Positions 32,206 to 43,909 of a stretch of DNA of 64,000 nucleotides are shown piece after piece; within the stretch, counting starts at the first letter, position 1; each line of letters opens with the position of its first letter. This DNA is from Halobacteriaceae archaeon. GTDB taxonomy: Archaea; Halobacteriota; Halobacteria; Halobacteriales; Halobacteriaceae. The notes beneath the pieces are model-generated. The model made no database searches. It saw only the letters and a program-made list of their open reading frames with translations, and was not told the origin of the DNA. Location of the stretch: the NCBI GenBank assembly GCA_042216675.1, contig JBDGTS010000016.1:18829-82828 (forward strand), in the 5' to 3' direction. Position numbers and translations under genes: made by a program.

Positions 32206-32264
32206 CGCCGGACACGCGCCCGGTAGTCACGTAAAATGCGGGGGATGTGGACGCGCCGCGAGAC

Positions 32265-32347
32265 TGAGGGGACGGGGATTCGAACCCCGGTACTCCTAAG
32301 AGACGGGGTCTTAAGCCCCGCGCCTTTGGCCGCTCGGCCACCCCCTC
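32265..32347 (-). tRNA. tRNA-Leu (anticodon UAA)
   Basis: Folded by eye: acceptor GAGGGGG/TCCCCTC + A73; D arm GCC..GGC; anticodon stem CGGGG-CTTAAGA-CCCCG; long variable arm CTC-TTAG-GAG; T arm CGGGG-TTCGAAT-CCCCG. CCA not encoded. Confidence 0.92.
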
Positions 32348-32405
32348 ACAGTCGCGCCGGTAATAGGTAATCGGCGGCGAAGTTTACTGCCTTTCGGTTA
32401 CCCAC

Positions 32406-35096: not shown

Positions 35097-37790
35097 ATGG
35101 CGCCGAGGCCCCACGGACTCCGAACCGCGTACGCCACCGCTCCCCTCGGACTCGGGGAGCGCGAACCGACACTCCGCTGGCAGGCGGCCGCCGACGACCG
35201 CGGCGCCGGGCAGACGGCGTTCCGCGTCTGCGTCGCAACCGACCCCGAGCGCTGTCGCCCCGGCGAGGCCGACGTGTGGGACACGGGCCGCCGCGAGTCC
35301 GCTCGCCCCGCCGTCGAGTACGACGGCCCCGCACTCGCTTCCCGCGAGCGATACCACTGGGCCGTGCGCATCTGGGACGAGGACGGCGAGCGCTCGGCGT
35401 GGAGCGACACCGGGACCTTCGAGATGGGACTCCTCGACGCCGCCGACTGGTCGGCGTCGTGGATTCGCCGCGACGAGGACCAGTACGAGCGCGGGCACTT
35501 CTCTCACTTCCGCCGCGAGTTCGACCTCGACGGCGAGGTGGCGCGAGCGCGGGCCTACGTCTCCGCGGGCCAGCAGTACGCGCTCTCGGCCAACGGCGTG
35601 GAACTCGACCGCGGCCCCTCGTTCTCCTACCCCGACTCGCAGTACTACAAGACGGTCGACCTCAGCGACGCCCTGACGGAGGGTGCGAACGCCGTCGGTG
35701 CTCTCCAGACGTGGAACGCGGGCGGACAGGGCCGCCCCGAGGGCGAGCCGGGCTTCATCTGCCAAATCGAGGTCGAACTCGCCGACGGCACGGAGCGACG
35801 CATCGCCACCGACGACGATTGGGCGGTGCGCGAGGCGGCGTGGCAGGACACCGACATCCGCAACGGCGAAATCGCGGAACCCATCGAGGTCATCGACGCG
35901 CGCGAGGTGCCCCGCGGCTGGACGGCCCCCGGCTTCGACGATAGCGACTGGGAGCGACCCGCCGTCGTTGGCGACCACCCCACCGAACCGTGGACGAGTC
36001 TCGTCGCACAGGAGCGTGAAGTCGTGCGCCGCCGCGTCGAACCCGAATCCGTCGACATTCTCGACGACGGCACCTACGTGTACGACTTCGGTCGCGTCTA
36101 CTCCGCCGTCCCCGTCGTGGAGTTCGAGGACGGCGAGGCGGGCCGCCGCGTCGACATGCTCGCGGGCTACCGCCGCGACGACGGCCACGTCTCCACCGAC
36201 GAGGGCACGCAGACGACGGACATGTCCTACGGCCTGATTCAGCGGGACGGCGGCCAGACGTTCCGCCCGTTCAACTATCTGGGCATCCGCTACTTCGAAG
36301 TCGAGGACCCGGGCGAACAGCCGGACGTGACGCTCTTCGCCTCGCACACCGACGTGCCCGACCGACGCGCTGCCACCTTCGAGTCCGACGACGAGACGGT
36401 GGACGACGTGTTCGAGATGGCGCGCCACTCCGCGCTGTACGGCTCCCAAGAGCAGTTCATCGACACGCCGACCCGGGAGAAGGGACAGTTCCTGATGGAC
36501 GGCTTCAACATCTCGCGGGTGACGACCCACGCCTTCGGCGAACGCCGCCTCAGCCGGCAGGCCATTCGGGAGTTCGTCGAGTCCCACTACCGCTACTGGT
36601 GCGCGGAGGGCCGCCTCAACGCGGTGTATCCGAACGACGACGGGAAGCGCGACATCCCCGACTTCACCGCCAACTTCGGCGAGTGGGTGTGGCGCTACTA
36701 CCGCGTCACCGACGACGAGCGGATTCTGGAGGAGGCCTACCCCATCGTGAAGGCCGTCGCCGACTACGTCCTCCGGAACGTCGACGACGAGACGGGTCTC
36801 GTGATGAACCTCGCTGGCGGCATCGGCGGCCCATACCACCAGGGCATCGTCGACTGGCCCCCGGAGATGCGCTACGGCTTCGACCGGGACTGGCCCGCGC
36901 GGACGCCGGTGAACGTCCTCTGTGCGAACGCGCTCCTGCGAACCGCCCGCATCGCCGACGAACTCGACCGGCCGGACTACGAGCGGCGCCACTACCGCGA
37001 CGAGGGCGCGGCGCTCGCGTCGGCCATCAACGACTACTGCCTCGTCGACGGCCGCTACGTCGACGGCGCCGACGCCGAGGCCCACAGCGACAACGCCTCC
37101 CAACACGCGAACGCGCTCCCCCTCGCCTTCGGCATCGCACCCGCCGAAATCGCGCCTGACCTCGCTGACCGCATCGCCGACCAAGGGATGTCGATGGGGC
37201 CGATGATGGTCCAGTGGCTCTGCGAGGCGTTCGAGGCCACCGGCCGCACCGACGCTCTCGTCGACCTCATCACCGACGAGGAACAGGACGGCTGGGCCGA
37301 CATCCTCTCGCGCGACCAGACCTCCTTCTTCACGTGGGAGACGTGGCACGCACGCTCCGACGACGTGACGAAGGGCGGCGGTCGACGGAACCGAAGCGAG
37401 TCCCACGCGATGGGCGCGACGGTCCTCGTGAGCATCCAGCGAGCCCTGCTCGGCGTGCGCCTCGTCGGCCCCGGCGGGTCGCACCTCGACGTGGCCCCGC
37501 CCGCCGCCGGCATCGACAGCGCCGCGGGCACCGTCCCCACCGAACGCGGCCCCGTCGCGGTGTCGTGGGACCGTGCGGGTGGCCTCTCGCTCGACGTGAC
37601 GGTGCCGTGGAACGCGACGGCGACGGTGACGCTCCCCGTCGGGGACGCGGCCGTCTCCGAGGGCGGTGACCCCCTCTGGGACGACGGCGCGGCGGACGAC
37701 CTCCCGGCCGGCGTGACAGCAGTCCGTCACGAGGGCGATGCAGTCGTCGCCGAGGTTCGGGCGGGCGACTACCACTTCGCCGCGGAGTAG
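35097..37790 (+). CDS. Alpha-L-rhamnosidase (GH78)
   Basis: N-terminal 'P.LRW...QTA...WDTGR', 'FEMGLL...W', 'YDFG', 'DTPTREKGQ', 'WETW', 'SESH.M'. No signal peptide. Confidence 0.88.
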   Translation: MAPRPHGLRTAYATAPLGLGEREPTLRWQAAADDRGAGQTAFRVCVATDPERCRPGEADVWDTGRRESARPAVEYDGPALASRERYHWAVRIWDEDGERSAWSDTGTFEMGLLDAADWSASWIRRDEDQYERGHFSHFRREFDLDGEVARARAYVSAGQQYALSANGVELDRGPSFSYPDSQYYKTVDLSDALTEGANAVGALQTWNAGGQGRPEGEPGFICQIEVELADGTERRIATDDDWAVREAAWQDTDIRNGEIAEPIEVIDAREVPRGWTAPGFDDSDWERPAVVGDHPTEPWTSLVAQEREVVRRRVEPESVDILDDGTYVYDFGRVYSAVPVVEFEDGEAGRRVDMLAGYRRDDGHVSTDEGTQTTDMSYGLIQRDGGQTFRPFNYLGIRYFEVEDPGEQPDVTLFASHTDVPDRRAATFESDDETVDDVFEMARHSALYGSQEQFIDTPTREKGQFLMDGFNISRVTTHAFGERRLSRQAIREFVESHYRYWCAEGRLNAVYPNDDGKRDIPDFTANFGEWVWRYYRVTDDERILEEAYPIVKAVADYVLRNVDDETGLVMNLAGGIGGPYHQGIVDWPPEMRYGFDRDWPARTPVNVLCANALLRTARIADELDRPDYERRHYRDEGAALASAINDYCLVDGRYVDGADAEAHSDNASQHANALPLAFGIAPAEIAPDLADRIADQGMSMGPMMVQWLCEAFEATGRTDALVDLITDEEQDGWADILSRDQTSFFTWETWHARSDDVTKGGGRRNRSESHAMGATVLVSIQRALLGVRLVGPGGSHLDVAPPAAGIDSAAGTVPTERGPVAVSWDRAGGLSLDVTVPWNATATVTLPVGDAAVSEGGDPLWDDGAADDLPAGVTAVRHEGDAVVAEVRAGDYHFAAE

Positions 37791-37841: not shown

Positions 37842-39950
37842 ATGGGCGCTCCGCCGACCACCGAGGGTGGGACTATCGCCTTCAGCGCCCGGGACGACCC
37901 CCCGGGGCTGGTGGTGAGAGACCGCATCGAGCAACACAAGTACACCCTCAACGCGTCCGACTCCGTCTCGCCGCGCGCCGTCGACACCGAGCGGTTCGTC
38001 TTCCCCGTCGACGCCGCCACGGCGATCTCCACCGCCGAGATTCGACTGCCGACTGTCGTCATCACCTGCATTCGCGACGCCGTGGGGGACACCGTCGCCC
38101 GCACGGAACACAGCGCCGAGGTGTCGCTCCCCCCCGACGCGTACGAACTCGAACTCCACGCGCCGATTCGGATGTACCTCCGCGTCGAGAGCGGCGTCGA
38201 CGTCGTCGCCGACGGCGAACACACCCGCATCGACTTCGGTGACGAGACGACCGTCGAGGTGGGCGTGCGCTCGGACCACGAGCGACCCGCCGCGACGGTC
38301 CAGACCACGTCGGACCCGCGGGACCTGATGCGTGCCGTCTCGACGTTCGGGTCCGCGCTCAAGACCACCTCGCCGGAGCGCGCGTTCCCGACGTTCCGCG
38401 GGCACCCGCCGGCGGTCGAACTCGCCGACGAGTTCTCGGTGCCGGCCGAAGTCGAGCCACCTGATACCGGGGTGACAATCGAGGTGCCCCCGGAGCGCCG
38501 CTACGTCTACGTCGTGGCGCCACTTGCGTACTACCTCGGTGCGACCGTCGAACCGGGCGAGACGCCCCGCCTCGTCACTGACGCGGGCTTCGAGTACGAG
38601 TTGGGCGCCGACCGCGCGTTCGAGCAGTCCGTCGAGCGAGTGCTCAAGCAGGTGTTCGTCCTCGACTGCGTGACCCGCACCGAGGGCCTCTACGAGGTGT
38701 CGTTCAAGACGCGGCAGGCCCTCGCCGACGACATCGACTTCGACCCCGCCGTGGCCTACGACCGACCGCTCGCGGAGCGACTCGAAACGTACCTCGCCGA
38801 GGAGTACGACGCGATAGAGCCGGCGATTCCGGACTGGAAGCTCACCTCCCACGTCTCGCTGGATCCGACCTCCGCCGAGACGCTCCCGTATCTCGTCAAC
38901 GACCTCGCCATCGTCCGGACGCCCGGTTCGACGTCCGCGGCGTCCTCTCCCTCCGCGAAGGCGGCCATCGACGAGTTCCTCCGCGACGGCGACTCGTTCG
39001 TCCGCTCCACCACCGACGGCGGCACGGCGGTGGACCGCGACTTCGTGCAGGCCGACGAGGAGGACGCCCTCGAACACGCGTGGGTCGGCGAGGAGACGCC
39101 CGTCGGCATGAGCAAGGTCACGGAGACGGCCTATCAGCACCAGTTCGACCGGGAGCCGACGGACGGCGACATCGAGATTACGGTCGTCTGCAACGACCCG
39201 GAGATGGCGGCCGAACAGGACCTGCTCCAGACCGTCTACGGCACCCGCGAGCGTCTGCCGTTCGACATCGAGTTCGAGGAGGGCCTGCCCACCGACGCAC
39301 TCCGCGAGACGCTCGCGGCGGACGTGGACTTCCTCCACTACGTCGGGCACATCGACGACGGCGGCTTCCGGTGCCCCGACGGCGTCCTCGACGCCACCAC
39401 CCTCGACGAGGTGGGCGTCGACGCCTTCCTGCTGAACGCCTGCCAGTCCTACGACCAAGGGCTCGGACTCATCAACGCGGGCGCCATCGCCGGCATCACG
39501 ACGCTCAGCGACGTGCCGAACGAGGCGGCCGTCGAGATGGGCTACACGATTTCGCGCCTGCTGAACTCCGGGTTCCCGATTCGGGGCGCACTGGAAGTCG
39601 CGAAGGAGGAACACATCATCGGGAGCCAGTACGTCGTCGTCGGCGACGGCGGGATGACGATTACGCAGGCGGAGAGCGGAACCGCGCAACTGTACGAACT
39701 AGAGCGGACGGACGACGGATTCGCCCTCGACATCATCGGCTACGCGTCGTCGAACTTCGGAATGGGGGCACTGTTCACGCCGTTCATCAGCGACGACGCG
39801 CCGTACTATCTCAACTCCGGGCACCTCGACCGGTTCGAACTGACCGCCGAGGAACTATCCGAGTTCCTGATGATGGAGAACGTGCCGGTCCGTTTCGACG
39901 GCGAACTGCACTGGAGTTACGACCTCTCTGTTAGCGCACTCGACGACTGA
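37842..39950 (+). CDS. 702-aa protein with C-terminal caspase/CHAT-like (clan CD) His-Cys motifs
   Basis: 'DFLHYVGH' (His codon 39348) and 'FLLNACQS' (Cys codon 39441), followed by 'GLINAGA..GI.TL..V....A'; spacing and pattern resemble CHAT 'HF.GHG...VLSAC.S'. Confidence 0.65.
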   Translation: MGAPPTTEGGTIAFSARDDPPGLVVRDRIEQHKYTLNASDSVSPRAVDTERFVFPVDAATAISTAEIRLPTVVITCIRDAVGDTVARTEHSAEVSLPPDAYELELHAPIRMYLRVESGVDVVADGEHTRIDFGDETTVEVGVRSDHERPAATVQTTSDPRDLMRAVSTFGSALKTTSPERAFPTFRGHPPAVELADEFSVPAEVEPPDTGVTIEVPPERRYVYVVAPLAYYLGATVEPGETPRLVTDAGFEYELGADRAFEQSVERVLKQVFVLDCVTRTEGLYEVSFKTRQALADDIDFDPAVAYDRPLAERLETYLAEEYDAIEPAIPDWKLTSHVSLDPTSAETLPYLVNDLAIVRTPGSTSAASSPSAKAAIDEFLRDGDSFVRSTTDGGTAVDRDFVQADEEDALEHAWVGEETPVGMSKVTETAYQHQFDREPTDGDIEITVVCNDPEMAAEQDLLQTVYGTRERLPFDIEFEEGLPTDALRETLAADVDFLHYVGHIDDGGFRCPDGVLDATTLDEVGVDAFLLNACQSYDQGLGLINAGAIAGITTLSDVPNEAAVEMGYTISRLLNSGFPIRGALEVAKEEHIIGSQYVVVGDGGMTITQAESGTAQLYELERTDDGFALDIIGYASSNFGMGALFTPFISDDAPYYLNSGHLDRFELTAEELSEFLMMENVPVRFDGELHWSYDLSVSALDD

Positions 39951-39962
39951 CTGGCCGGCCGG

Positions 39963-40088
39963 TCACCGAATCGTCCCGCCACTCGCCGCGACGGCGCTCC
40001 CTGCCTGCGACAGGAGCATCATGACCATGAACAGCTTCGCGAGCAGTTTGGGGTGATTCTTGAGTCGGGCTGCGATGGTATCGGACAT
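39963..40088 (-). CDS. 41-aa signal-peptide-like small protein MSDTIAARLKNHPKLLAKLFMVMMLLSQAGSAVAASGGTIR (recalled as DUF7503-like)
   Basis: Not in the ORF track. ATG at 40088, TGA at 39963; basic N-region, hydrophobic core, AVA site, short tail; TATA at the expected distance. Confidence 0.75.
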   Translation of the reverse strand: MSDTIAARLKNHPKLLAKLFMVMMLLSQAGSAVAASGGTIR

Positions 40089-40096
40089 TGCAACCC

Positions 40097-40140
40097 TTTA
40101 TTTTTCCGTGACTGTATTATAATTATTTAAAGGTTTACTA
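40097..40140 (-). promoter_or_regulatory. AT-rich promoter of the 41-aa ORF (TTATAATA about -27 to -34; TTTAAATA preceded by AAACC further up)
   Basis: Minus strand reads TAGTAAACCTTTAAATAATTATAATACAG; among the most AT-rich stretches in the window; consistent with a leaderless mRNA. Confidence 0.65.
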
Positions 40141-40441
40141 TGATTCCGTCGTGGGATAAAGTACCAGTAAAGATGCAGGTCCGGCGCCACCGGCGTGTTC
40201 CGGTCAGCGAGTCGACGGAAGTGGAGCCGACGTGGCCGACAGACATTACTTCCGCGGGAGCGTCTATAGAGAAAATCCGACGGACCCGGCTCGGGTCCGC
40301 CGACCTCATCGATGCTCTCCACCGTGTTCGCGGCGGCCCATCGGACTGGGGTCGTCACTGACCGAACACTGGCGCCCGCGCGTATCGATCGCCAGCCACG
40401 CCCTCCCGACCCCGGAGCCACAGTTCCCACCGAGGCGAACG

Positions 40442-42285
40442 ATGGGTGACGCCGTCGACGTCCTCCACGTCGGCGACTCCTTCGTGGCCCCCCTCGACGC
40501 GGCGGCCAGCGGGGCGGTCCGACGGACTGTGTACGGGGCCGACGAGACGGTGGCCGTACTGGACGAACTCGGGGACCCGGGCGCTCGGGTCGACTGCGTC
40601 GTCTGCGAACACCCACTCGACGACGTGGACGTGGTCGACTTTCTCGACTCCCTCGTCGAGTGGGGGGCCGGCGTGCCCGTCGTCCTCCTCACCGACGCGG
40701 GGAGCGAGTCGCTCGCGAGTGAGGCCATCTCCGCGGGCGTCACGGAGTACGTCAGCGTCGCCGACGCGGACTGGGCCGCCGCCGCGGCCGCCATCGAGCG
40801 CTGTGCCCGCGAGGGACGGACCGGCCCGCAGTTCCACCTCGAAACCTCGTTTCGCCACCTCGTGGAGCAGAACATCGCCGGCGTCTTCGAGGTGCAGGGC
40901 GAGGAGTTCACGTACGTCAATCCGACGTTCGCGGACGTCTTCGGCTACTCGCAGGCGGAGTTGATCGGTCGCTCGCCGCTGGACCTCGTGGTCGAAGCCG
41001 ACAGAGCGACCCTGCGCGAGAACATGGCGGCGCTCGCCCGCGGGGACGCCGAGAGCGCCGTCTGGAGGAGCAGAACCAGCGCCTCGACAGGCTGAACCGC
41101 ATCAACGAGACGATTCGGACAATCGACCGGGCGCTGGTACAGGCGTCCTCCCGGAGCGAAATCGAGCAGTCGGTCTGTTCGGAACTCGTGCGCGTCGGCT
41201 CCTACGCGTTCGCGTGGGTCGGCGAGTACGAACCCCGCTCCGACCGCGTCGAACCGCGCGAGTGGGCCGGCGCGGAGAAGGGCTATCTGGAGACGGCGAC
41301 GTTCACCACCGACGGCAGTCCGAGCGGACAGAGGCCCACCGGCCGGGCGGTCCGCACCGGGGAGCCACAGGTCACCGCCGACGTGCTCTCGGACCCGCCC
41401 CACGAGCCGTGGCGCGAGGCCGCCCTGAAGTGGGGCTATCGGTCGAGCATCGCCATCCCCCTCACCTACCGGGACAGTCTCTACGGCGTCCTCAACATCT
41501 ATGCGGAACGCCCGAACGTCTTCGACGAACTGGAGCGGCGGACCCTCTCGGAACTCGGCGAGACCATCGCGTACGCCATCAACGCCGTCGAGAGCAAGAA
41601 AGCCCTCGTCAGCGACGAGGTGACGGAACTGGACGTTCGCGTCGGCGTGGAGGGCTACCCGCTGTTCGAATTCGTCGGAGCGGACCCCGACCGCTCGTTC
41701 GAACTCGACGGCATCGTGCCCGCCGACGACGCCTTCCGCGTCTTCTACACCGTTCACGGCGCCACGGCCACCGAAATCGAGGCGCTCGCGGGCGAGTCGA
41801 TGGCGGTTCGGGAGAACCGCCTCGTCGCCGAACGCGACGGCGACTGCTCGTTCGAGTGCGTCGTCACCGAGGAAGGCCTGACGTTCTGGCTCCTCGATAG
41901 GGGCGCCGTGCCGCAGTCCATCTCCGTCTCCGAGGACGGCGCCCGCGTCACACTCGAACTCGCGCGGGACGCCGACGCCCGCGACTTCGTCGAACACCTC
42001 GACGCGGCGTATCCCGAGGTGGAACTGCTGGCTACGCGGCGCCGCGAGCGCTCGGTCCGCGCGCGGGCGGCGTTCGAGGCGGCCCTCGACGCGGAACTCA
42101 CGCCCCGCCAGCGCGAAGTTCTCCACACGGCGTATCTCAGCGGCTACTTCGACACGCCACGCGAGCGAACCGCCACCGACGTGGCGGCCTCGCTCGACAT
42201 CTCACAGCCGACGTTCAGCGGCCACCTCCGCGCTGGCCTGCGCAACGTTCTGGACCTGCTGTTCACCGACGACCTAGATAGATAG
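40442..42285 (+). pseudogene. Bacterio-opsin activator (Bat)-like REC-PAS-GAF-HTH_10 regulator, frameshifted by an internal deletion near 41050-41059
   Basis: First frame: receiver-like domain + first half of PAS, ending 'ARGDAES', stop at 41095. Second frame from 41050: 'RERRLEEQNQRLDRLNRIN...' then GAF and 'LTPRQREVLHTAYLSGYFDTPR...HLR'. The PAC half is missing. Confidence 0.8.
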
Positions 42286-42357: not shown

Positions 42358-42909
42358 ATGCGAATCAAACTCGCTGCGGTGGCGATGGTCGTCATCGCGA
42401 TTACGGCAACGCTCGGTGCTAGTGCGTTCACGACGGGAACTGTCGACCGGTCCTCCAGCGTCAACGTGGTCAACGACGACACTGGTCTCCTCGCTCTCTC
42501 CGACGGGACGTCCGGCGGCCTCGTGTTCCAGAACAGCAGCGGTGCCCTCGAAATCGACTTCACGAAGGGCGGCGCGAGCGGCGTCAACACGGAGGCGACG
42601 TTCACGCTCGGCAACACGGCCGACCCGACGAATCAGTCCGCGTTCAACATCTCGAACCTCGACGCCGAGTCCCACGACCTGACCGTCGAGTACACGGGTG
42701 CCGGCGGCACGAGTGACGCCGACGCCAATCTGCAGTTCCAGGTCTACGACAGCACCGGCACCAACGTCGCCACGGTCAGCGAGGAGACCACCTCGGACTC
42801 CATCACTGGCGCCGCCTCCGGTGACACGTACTACGTCGTCATCGTCGTGGACACCCACGGTCTCGACAGCACGGCGGACCTCTCCGGGACGCTGACGGTG
42901 TCGGCCTAA
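42358..42909 (+). CDS. Secreted Thr/Ser/Asp-rich filament-subunit-like protein (DUF1102-like)
   Basis: Signal peptide then 'SAFTTGTVDRSSSVNVVNDDTGLLAL', 'GVN..A.F..G', 'AFNISN'; adjacent to a signal peptidase. Confidence 0.7.
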   Translation: MRIKLAAVAMVVIAITATLGASAFTTGTVDRSSSVNVVNDDTGLLALSDGTSGGLVFQNSSGALEIDFTKGGASGVNTEATFTLGNTADPTNQSAFNISNLDAESHDLTVEYTGAGGTSDADANLQFQVYDSTGTNVATVSEETTSDSITGAASGDTYYVVIVVDTHGLDSTADLSGTLTVSA

Positions 42910-42925
42910 CGCCACACCGCCTCTC

Positions 42926-43909
42926 GTGTTTCGGTTCGCCGGCGCAGCCCTCGTGCTCGGGTTCGTCCTGCTGACGGTCGCCCCCGCTGGAGCGCCGGTG
43001 CAGGTGTCGTACGTGTTTTCGGACAGCATGTCGCCGACCATCGAGACGAACGACGCGTTCCTCGTGGTCGACTCCGACGGCGTGGAGACGGGCGACGTCA
43101 TCACATTCTGGGACGCTCAGCGGGAGACGTACGTCACCCACCGCGTCGTCGGGACGTCCGAGGCGGGGTTCATCACGAAGGGCGACAACAACCCGACCAC
43201 CGACCAAGCCGCCGGCCGGGCGCCGGTCCGGCAGAGCGACGTGGTCGGCGAAGTCGTCACCTACGGCGGCGCGCCGCTGACCGTCCCCGGCTACGGCGCC
43301 GCCGTAATCGCGATTCAGGAGCATCGCCTCCTCACGCTCCTCGTGGCGGGCGGAGCGATGCTCCTCACGTCGCTCCGACCCGGGGACCGCGATGCGCGGC
43401 CGTCGCGGTCGGTCCAGCGGGTGCGCCACGTCGTGCGACCGCTGTTCGCCGCCAGCGCTGCCTCCGTCGTCGCCGTCGTTCTCCTCACCGCCATCAGCCA
43501 GCAGTTCGTCTTCGTCGCCGTCGCGACGCCGTCTGCCGCGCCGAACACGCTCACTGTCGGTGAACCGCAGGAGACGACGCTCACCGTCGAGCGGTCGGCG
43601 TCGCCGTTCACGCGGAGCGTCGTCGGTGCCCACGGGATGACGGTGACGAACCAGTCCCGCAACGCCTCGGCGGTGTCCGTCACCGCCCGAATTCCGCCCC
43701 CGGAGTCGACGGGCCGCCACGCCACGCGGCTCACGGTCCATCAGTATCCGGCGGTGGCGCCGACGTGGCTCCTCCGGACGCTGCACGGCGTCCACCCGGC
43801 CGTACCCGCGGTGCTCACGACGCTCCTCGTGTTGGCGCCGCTGTATCTCGCCGTGGAACTCCTCATCGACGTGCGCGCCACCGACCGCTCGGCGCCCATC
43901 GAGGGCTGA
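42926..43909 (+). CDS. Signal peptidase I (S26, SipW/Sec11-like) with extra C-terminal membrane domain
   Basis: 'SYVFSDSMSPTI', 'GDVITF', 'VTHRVV', 'FITKGDNN'; GTG start. Confidence 0.85.
   Translation: MFRFAGAALVLGFVLLTVAPAGAPVQVSYVFSDSMSPTIETNDAFLVVDSDGVETGDVITFWDAQRETYVTHRVVGTSEAGFITKGDNNPTTDQAAGRAPVRQSDVVGEVVTYGGAPLTVPGYGAAVIAIQEHRLLTLLVAGGAMLLTSLRPGDRDARPSRSVQRVRHVVRPLFAASAASVVAVVLLTAISQQFVFVAVATPSAAPNTLTVGEPQETTLTVERSASPFTRSVVGAHGMTVTNQSRNASAVSVTARIPPPESTGRHATRLTVHQYPAVAPTWLLRTLHGVHPAVPAVLTTLLVLAPLYLAVELLIDVRATDRSAPIEG

Follow-up and report, generated by a model that had tools for sequence, protein, structure and literature searches.

In Rap-Phr and the other RRNPP systems, and in the arbitrium system AimR-AimP, a pre-peptide of about 40 residues, of which the C-terminal few residues are active, is encoded adjacent to its cytoplasmic partner. 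DegS and the tail-specific proteases are switched by C-terminal peptides, which act through a PDZ accessory domain. In the ligand-gated CHAT proteases, a sensor part that responds to a nucleotide or an RNA complex is fused to the protease. For the Archaea, PMC3615174 describes genomes without clear caspase homologues, yet caspase-like activity in Haloferax volcanii. Here, we describe a pair of genes from a Halobacteriaceae archaeon that resembles the first group of systems in layout, the second in the predicted docking of a C-terminal tail and the third in catalytic fold. The pair lies in a stretch of 64 000 nucleotides (contig JBDGTS010000016.1 of assembly GCA_042216675.1, positions 18 829–82 828 of the forward strand), which is referred to below as the window, and consists of a gene for a 702-residue protein with a caspase/CHAT fold and a convergent gene for a 41-residue microprotein of the DUF7503 family. 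We give a probability of roughly 0.45 to the reading that the two form a module in which the cytoplasmic protease is controlled by its cognate DUF7503 micro-peptide as a ligand. An earlier reading of the letters alone (the sequence-only reading) had singled out the same two open reading frames (ORFs) as a candidate peptide-signal/protease module; its observation is confirmed by the analysis and its interpretation is partly supported.

A conserved convergent gene pair

The large gene occupies positions 37842–39950 of the plus strand and encodes a cytoplasmic multidomain protein of clan CD fold, as delineated from the ORF, an AlphaFold model and Foldseek matches. The small gene is located at 39963–40088 on the minus strand. 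The two stop codons face each other across a spacer of 12 nucleotides (39951–39962), which leaves no room for separate terminators; the positions and the spacing are as the sequence-only reading had placed them. That reading called the small ORF unannotated, which holds for the ORF track only, since NCBI names its relatives ‘DUF7503 family protein’. The 41-residue product matches Pfam DUF7503 (PF24335) with an E value of 3.6e-14 and a score of 52.5 bits, compared with a gathering cut-off of 27, which places it within the family; it scored 51 bits in a search of the source genome and matched nothing in NCBIfam or PADLOC. The small ORF is a real gene, well beyond chance, of a family that has a name and no described function or partner. 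The source assembly, which is about 80% complete, contains one copy each of the small and large genes.

Among 301 sampled Halobacteria genomes, a search with the family model found DUF7503 in 253 (68 of 81 genera), and the large family is present in 277 (73 of 81 genera). The 20 genomes listed as lacking the large family are all absent from the 253 that carry DUF7503. The control genome of Haloferax volcanii also contains DUF7503 above the family cut-off. In a public protein collection, a profile search returned 1955 DUF7503 clusters at E ≤ 1e-3, mostly of 42–47 residues, and the large family has 822 representatives (50% clustering, E ≤ 1e-3), of which the best 150 are nearly all of about 700 residues.

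The two genes are found together from either side. At the best 30 DUF7503 loci, the 3' end of a large-family gene faces the small gene in every case (30/30), and a convergent large homologue is likewise present at all eight DUF7503 loci from same-family relatives of the window. The best 29 large-gene loci contain a convergent DUF7503 ORF just past the stop codon in 23 cases and about 1.4 kb away in one; five have none, and these five belong to a single genus (g47). For each of the 56 distinct small ORFs, a convergent ORF of 250 residues or more ends nearby. In five well-assembled genomes, 15 of the 16 DUF7503 genes are paired, including one tandem pair of identical copies, and up to five pairs occur per genome. 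There is no conserved third gene around the pair (the top neighbour family appears at 6 of 21 loci). The small and large genes are a tightly linked convergent pair that is conserved in Halobacteria; the sequence-only reading had mentioned similar small-ORF/large-ORF pairs in other haloarchaea.

The stop codons overlap, abut or lie at most 12 nucleotides apart in 33 of the 56 loci (median gap of four nucleotides), so that the transcripts overlap or end together. Gaps of 40–220 nucleotides in 17 of the 56 loci indicate that overlap is not required for pairing. The computed gap is −4, with bases shared between the stop codons, in 12 of the 56 related loci (L002–L069), and the stop codons abut in ten; a gap of −4 presumably corresponds to a palindromic TTAA, in which TAA is read on both strands.

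Beyond Halobacteria, sampling of the phylum revealed the large family in two more families, and none of ten genomes across them has a match to the Pfam DUF7503 model above its cut-off. The first, a low-GC family (0.39–0.43 in the fetched loci), has a full-length large match in all four genomes. Three of its four loci contain a convergent ORF of 42–43 residues in which D-P-R and a hydrophobic stretch precede a C-terminal Gly-Pro (L119, 878–1006; L122, 935–1066; L121, ~880–1010); the DUF7503 family is therefore wider than the Pfam model, which misses these ORFs. In the second family (11 of 15 genomes), the large match stops at approximately model position 620, so that the C-terminal domain is missing, and the four loci examined contain no such small ORF. 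The P-R, the hydrophobic stretch and the Gly-Pro are common to both of the diverged versions of the small protein. The pair, of which a diverged form is thus present in a sister class, is older than the class Halobacteria.

The two proteins

The window copy of the small protein consists, in order, of a polar N-region with H-P-K, a hydrophobic stretch, S-Q-A-G, A-V-A-A and a short tail. In the family (an alignment of 47 members and a wider set), the polar N-region of about 15 residues closes with (H/N)-P-(R/K) and is followed by an apolar core of 12 residues with the consensus M-x-G-V-L-F-T-x-x-L-L-L, then by S-Q-A-G and (A/V)-x-A. Inspected by eye, this succession of a basic residue, the apolar core, S-Q-A-G and A/V-x-A has the n-h-c layout of a signal peptide. 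The tail, of 7–9 residues, is semi-variable with the consensus (A-)G-N-x-x-T-(I/V)-(S/A)-G-P. Pro13, Phe20 and Ala34 are invariant among the 47 members, and Gln28, Gly30 and the final Gly-Pro are conserved in at least 90% of them. The alignments of relatives therefore agree with the sequence-only reading that the head is conserved while the tail varies.

The Gly-Pro C-terminus is present in 53 of the 56 distinct ORFs of the fetched loci and in all of the 120 best database matches. Its codons vary synonymously only (proportion of synonymous differences, pS, 0.69; proportion of nonsynonymous differences, pN, 0.00), from which it follows that the frame is translated to its end and that the last two residues are selected as amino acids. 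A span of 29 residues between the P-R/K and the C-terminus is seen in 144 of 161 sequences (overall range 27–30), and the basic residue of the P-R/K is replaced by Gln in two of the 161. Charged residues are rare in the tails, with eight among ~1100 residues, and lysine and arginine are more abundant in the N-terminal flank than in the tail in 160 of the 161 sequences, a charge bias that predicts an N-in orientation for these 160. Paralogous small proteins within one genome differ in their tails (five in G145 and six in G189). N-glycosylation sequons occur in 36 of 158 tails compared with 24.3 ± 4.0 in shuffled sequences; the excess is modest, and the sequon was dropped as a defining feature of the tail, being confined to a minority of sequences.

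The closest relative of the window pair is a metagenome contig (L070), the only close relative returned by the metagenome scan; the scan of genome contigs returned none. Its large protein is 71% identical to that of the window, and its 41-residue ORF shares with the window copy a lysine at the place where at least 90% of members have Gly17. The L070 protein ends in GGTIW, one of the five G145 paralogues ends in GGTIR, and two more small-protein sequences end in TID. An assembly error as the source of the odd C-terminus in the window was ruled out by the similar endings of L070 and of the G145 paralogue. In the lineage of the window, GGTI-R/W takes the place of Gly-Pro. The C-terminal Gly-Pro of the family was invisible to the sequence-only reading because the window copy lacks it.

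Upstream of the small gene, the GC content falls to 0.42 in 40100–40199, compared with 0.62–0.78 in the surrounding DNA, and an A/T-only run at 40115–40131 (minus strand, −27 to −43 from the ATG) is a putative archaeal promoter element (TATA box and transcription factor B recognition element); the AT-rich box that the sequence-only reading had described is therefore present. A similar box precedes the small gene of L070. Over 56 loci, the mean A+T content upstream of the small genes is 0.89–0.96 at most positions from −38 to −29 and drops to 0.18–0.34 at −22 to −18, so that every small gene seems to possess its own conserved AT-rich putative promoter box at a fixed distance. The AT-rich tract extends to about −70, well past a TATA box. 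At L062 (G015:C1:486534-486796), two tandem DUF7503 genes that encode identical proteins face one large gene, and no separate AT-rich box precedes the second copy.

The 702-residue protein has no family in Pfam, NCBIfam (both at E ≤ 1) or PADLOC; in particular, the Pfam sequence models of CHAT (PF12770) and Peptidase C14 do not match it at E ≤ 1. Public records of its homologues are mostly labelled ‘hypothetical protein’, with a few as ‘CHAT domain-containing’ or ‘caspase family’. The protein has no export signal. The AlphaFold model, which was computed from a 103-member alignment, has a mean predicted local distance difference test (pLDDT) score of 92.2 and a predicted template modelling (TM) score of 0.92; only residues 1–8 and the linker at ~361–400 are uncertain. 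The domains follow in the order β-sandwich, α/β, caspase-like and β: from the secondary structure of the models, the N-terminal β-sandwich spans approximately residues 10–155 (37869–38306, plus strand, as are all features of this gene), the caspase/CHAT-like catalytic domain, as judged from fold matches and conservation, approximately residues 440–605 (39159–39656) and the β-rich C-terminal domain residues 606–702 (39657–39947).

A Foldseek search of the PDB returned 48 matches at E ≤ 1e-3, the leading ones with a probability of 1.00. These include the SAVED-CHAT filament 8tl0 (2.8e-7), the separase protease domain 5fby (3.0e-7), with further separases listed, gingipain R 1cvr (2.4e-6, TM score of 0.43 on the target), the CHAT anti-sigma factor DdvA (8rw5) and Craspase TPR-CHAT (Csx29; ~1e-4). 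Sequence identity is 10–14% for the separase and the gingipains. When the family profile was compared with PDB sequences, 8tl0 was reached at a non-significant E value of 1.4, yet the His and Cys motifs were paired with those of CHAT. These motifs, LHYVGH (residues 498–503) and LLNACQS (residues 530–536), are those on which the sequence-only reading had based its proposal of a caspase/CHAT-like fold with a His–Cys dyad, and the model and the conservation uphold it. The candidate dyad consists of His503 (39348–39350) and Cys534 (39441–39443), each kept in 101 of 103 family representatives and each preceded by a strand (residues 495–501 and 526–532, respectively); His499 is kept by every one of the 103. 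At position 452, where the first strand of the catalytic domain ends, 96 of 103 have Asp or Glu. The highest conservation in the family is located in the middle domain, in the motif AFPTFRGHPP (residues 181–190; 38382–38411; family consensus S-F-P-T-L-R-G-H-P-P), in which Arg186 and Pro190 are kept in 103 of 103, Pro189 in 102 and Pro183 in 99 representatives. Gly642 of the C-terminal domain is invariant (103/103). The modelled protein has the fold and the conserved dyad that characterize clan CD cysteine peptidases, and it may have peptidase activity.

The N-terminal half, modelled alone (pLDDT of 94.1), gave only weak Foldseek matches to the N-terminal β-sandwiches of GH31 glycosidases (~1e-4, TM score of ~0.2), which provide no functional lead, and residues 600–702 gave no usable match in the ESM Atlas. 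A genome may contain up to nine full-length copies of the large gene. In the five well-assembled genomes, one subfamily, with a match that starts at approximately model position 40, is present as a single copy per genome and is never found beside DUF7503 (e.g. G015:C1:412571-414472 and G008:C1:559597-561624). In G189, two large-gene fragments with an in-frame stop (G189:C1:1468730-1469626 and G189:C1:2391669-2392430) lie beside full-length paralogues, which suggests that they are decaying tandem duplicates.

Predicted complex and proposed role of the small protein

One complex prediction was carried out for the pair of the window, with its atypical tail, using two family alignments, the small protein as partner and controls. 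The co-folding that the sequence-only reading had suggested yielded interaction prediction scores from aligned errors (ipSAE) of 0.76, 0.74 and 0.72 (median 0.74), compared with 0.33 for the best control and 0.00 and 0.00 for the others, and at least 66% of contacts are common to the runs. Among solved complexes, 58 of 80 reached the mark applied to this score, as did two of 110 mismatched pairs, a calibration that is only rough because it was applied to the analysis's own alignments. Of the small protein, only residues 33–41 (VAASGGTIR; 39966–39992, minus strand), which run from the A-x-A site to the C-terminus, take part in the confident interface. The large protein contributes residues 611–616, 638–649, 655, 658, 675–681 and 692 of the C-terminal domain and, in the middle domain, residues 182–184, 284 and 286. 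Contacts are tightest between residues 643–648 and 37–40 and between residues 612–614 and 38–39, and residues 182–184 (the F-P-T of the R-G-H-P-P motif) contact residue 40. The contact positions are a mixture of near-invariant (Pro183, Thr184 and Gly642) and variable residues. The catalytic residues and the P-R/K region are located outside the confident interface.

In the model, the docked tail reads as an added β-strand, and the invariant Arg186 and His188 may receive its free C-terminus. The prediction supports binding and does not show it; we consider it somewhat more probable than not that binding of the tail to the C-terminal domain is real and functional.

On the preferred reading, the small protein would be made from its own strong promoter, inserted N-in and cut after the conserved A-x-A site, and the released nonapeptide would be taken up again and could report cell density or kin. 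The tail (the last 8–9 residues with the free C-terminus) would then be accommodated as an added β-strand in a groove on the C-terminal domain, its end lying beside the R-G-H-P-P motif, and occupancy by the ligand would switch the His503/Cys534 protease on or off. The analysis establishes the linkage, the fold, the conservation of the dyad and the selection on the C-terminal residues; the binding is predicted, and we infer that the small protein is exported, cleaved and taken up again, as well as how control is exerted and on which targets the protease acts. Export, cleavage and re-uptake are the simplest route by which the two partners could meet because the charge bias predicts an N-in small protein and the large protein has no export signal; the different tails of paralogues within a genome and the separate, conserved promoter fit this route. 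That it is the correct one is nevertheless somewhat doubtful. We regard as unlikely the most far-reaching version, which would be the first gene-encoded peptide communication system of the Archaea, with exported Gly-Pro nonapeptide pheromones and a caspase-like protease as the intracellular receptor that feeds density or kin information into proteolysis, and with this protease family as a candidate for the caspase-like activity of Haloferax volcanii.

Several observations weigh against control by a peptide ligand. Besides the roughness of the calibration, the partner has a pLDDT of only 45–49 in the complex, so that its own fold is uncertain. The fit of tail distances to distances at contact residues (r = 0.33) does not exceed the fit at non-contact residues of the same domain (r = 0.37); the correlation with the caspase domain is 0.28. 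The partial Mantel p value of ~0.001 in this comparison ignores relatedness. The pN/pS ratio of the tails is ~0.7–0.8 in a crude Nei–Gojobori estimate whose saturated proportions favour neither side; it gives no sign of diversifying selection, and the tail is no more than semi-variable. The window copy, which ends in GGTIR, lacks the Gly-Pro hallmark. Pairing is incomplete from the side of the large gene: in the five well-assembled genomes, 14 of 26 full-length large genes are paired and 12 have no adjacent small gene, and in the genus g47 none of five loci has a small ORF within 800 nucleotides downstream of the large gene. Finally, the head of the small protein is far more conserved than ordinary signal peptides, and the fixed spacing of 29 residues, which an export signal alone would not explain, would fit a protein that is held at both ends by one partner. 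Head conservation, spacing and tail variability fit at least as well with a substrate that is cut after the P-R/K, and also with an uncleaved subunit.

The alternative that survives best, although we judge it unlikely, is that the small protein is a substrate or pro-peptide which is met in the cytoplasm. The C-terminal domain would grip the free C-terminus as an exosite, and the protease would cut upstream at a set interval, after the P-R/K as the most plausible position or else at the A-x-A, thereby releasing or inactivating a membrane-active fragment. P-R/K and a C-terminal Gly-Pro are both common to Halobacteria and to the diverged version in the sister family, and the distance between them is nearly fixed. 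Position 452, with its acidic residue, would correspond to the place of the acid in the Arg/Lys-specific S1 pocket of metacaspases and paracaspases, and the Arg-specific gingipain R is, like separase, among the best fold matches. A protein of 44 residues would leave the ribosome before it is targeted to the membrane, so that an encounter in the cytoplasm is possible. Against cleavage at this site, the confident contacts include neither the catalytic residues nor the P-R/K region, the basic residue gives way to Gln in the two sequences mentioned above and no cleavage product is known; moreover, a dedicated 700-residue protease for a 44-residue substrate, in up to five pairs per genome, would have no obvious purpose.

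The conserved head can also be read as that of an uncleaved stoichiometric partner, either a membrane anchor or a securin-like inhibitor, with its helix in the membrane or buried and its tail in the C-terminal domain. Strong conservation of the hydrophobic head would be expected of a helix with specific contacts, the complex model predicts binding, and the fold resembles that of separase, which is itself controlled by a bound inhibitor; tails nearly devoid of charge are atypical of exposed haloarchaeal segments and would fit a buried strand. However, the positive-inside rule predicts that 160 of the 161 proteins are N-in, with the tail outside and away from a cytoplasmic protein without an export signal, and the helix is placed without confidence in the complex. 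We consider such a subunit distinctly less probable than a substrate.

A pairing without any relationship at the protein level, whether through linkage of the RNAs (overlapping 3' ends, antisense control or a shared terminator) or with a type-I-toxin-like peptide, the binding then being a modelling artefact, would suit the overlapping, abutting or closely spaced stop codons of 33 of the 56 loci and the fact that the complex score is the model's own confidence and no measurement, but is very improbable given that linkage persists across families and into another class while all other neighbours change, that selection acts on the last two residues of the protein at the level of the amino acid, that the score passed three controls and that 17 of the 56 loci have gaps of 40–220 nucleotides.

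Neighbouring genes and comparison with known systems

Directly upstream of the large gene, an ORF at 35097–37790 (plus strand) encodes an 897-residue family-78 α-L-rhamnosidase with five Pfam rhamnosidase domains. On the other side, two back-to-back ORFs at 40232–42285 (plus strand) resemble one Bat-type regulator in two pieces: the Pfam matches of the first (40232–41095), which starts about 140 nucleotides from the start of the small gene on the opposite strand, are a weak receiver domain and PAS, and those of the second (41188–42285) are GAF, BAT and HTH_10. Genes at 42358–43909 (plus strand) encode a 183-residue protein with a hydrophobic, signal-like N-terminal segment and no Pfam family, followed by a 327-residue protein with a sub-threshold match to signal peptidase S26 (E value of 2.5e-4, 21.5 bits compared with a cut-off of 22.9). 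The sole tRNA within the window is a tRNA-Leu (anticodon TAA) at 32264–32348 on the minus strand.

A search of the full-text literature, with supplementary tables outside its scope, found no published treatment of DUF7503, of haloarchaeal CHAT domains or of the pair; in a term search, PMC4158269 contained none of ‘caspase’, ‘CHAT’ and ‘Halobacteria’, and PMC5756287 did not contain ‘archaea’. If the proposed ligand control is correct, a near-universal caspase/CHAT-fold protease family of an archaeal class would possess a dedicated gene-encoded peptide partner, peptides would join nucleotides and RNA complexes as triggers of CHAT proteases, and the orphan family DUF7503 would gain a partner and a testable role. 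It would also supply a gene candidate for the long-standing problem of regulated proteolysis and caspase-like activity in haloarchaea. The interest of the pair lies in its wide spread, its unexplored state and its direct testability, Haloferax volcanii, a carrier of DUF7503, being genetically tractable.

The layout in which a small, pre-peptide-like gene lies beside that of a cytoplasmic partner had led the sequence-only reading to Rap-Phr and arbitrium, which the pair resembles somewhat in layout: as in the RRNPP systems, the small protein has about 40 residues, the partner is adjacent, and several paralogous pairs with different tails occur per genome. Other points speak against the analogy. 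The putative receptor is a caspase-like protease without a TPR fold, and not a phosphatase or transcription factor; none of its Foldseek results matches a TPR beyond the CHAT part of TPR-CHAT, and the module is therefore not a member of RRNPP. Furthermore, the genes are convergent rather than co-directional, and a highly conserved head is followed by a semi-conserved tail whose end is invariant in most lineages.

With DegS and the tail-specific proteases the locus shares a free C-terminal tail that is predicted to join an accessory domain as a β-strand at a distance from the catalytic site. The catalytic class and the fold are different, and the protein described here is cytoplasmic whereas those proteases are periplasmic.

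Separase (C50), with securin, and gingipains R and K (C25) share the clan CD fold over long alignments and, like the large protein, have accessory domains that flank the catalytic domain. Separase is controlled by a bound polypeptide, as we propose for the large protein. Sequence identity is only 10–14%, nothing points to common substrates, and the partner here is a hydrophobic microprotein of 41–47 residues that is predicted to sit on the C-terminal domain and not along the active site.

The ligand-gated CHAT proteases, SAVED-CHAT (8tl0) and Craspase TPR-CHAT/Csx29 (7y84 and 8d9f), have the same catalytic fold, with His and Cys motifs that align with those of 8tl0. The large protein differs from them in that no CHAT match is found at the sequence level and in that its N- and C-terminal domains show no relationship to SAVED or TPR; a peptide encoded by a gene is proposed as its ligand, instead of a nucleotide or an RNA complex. 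The large family is also near-universal in its class (277 of 301 genomes), unlike the patchy distribution of defence genes, and has no PADLOC match. Nevertheless, the general logic, in which a sensor part fused to a CHAT protease would respond to a ligand, is the same.

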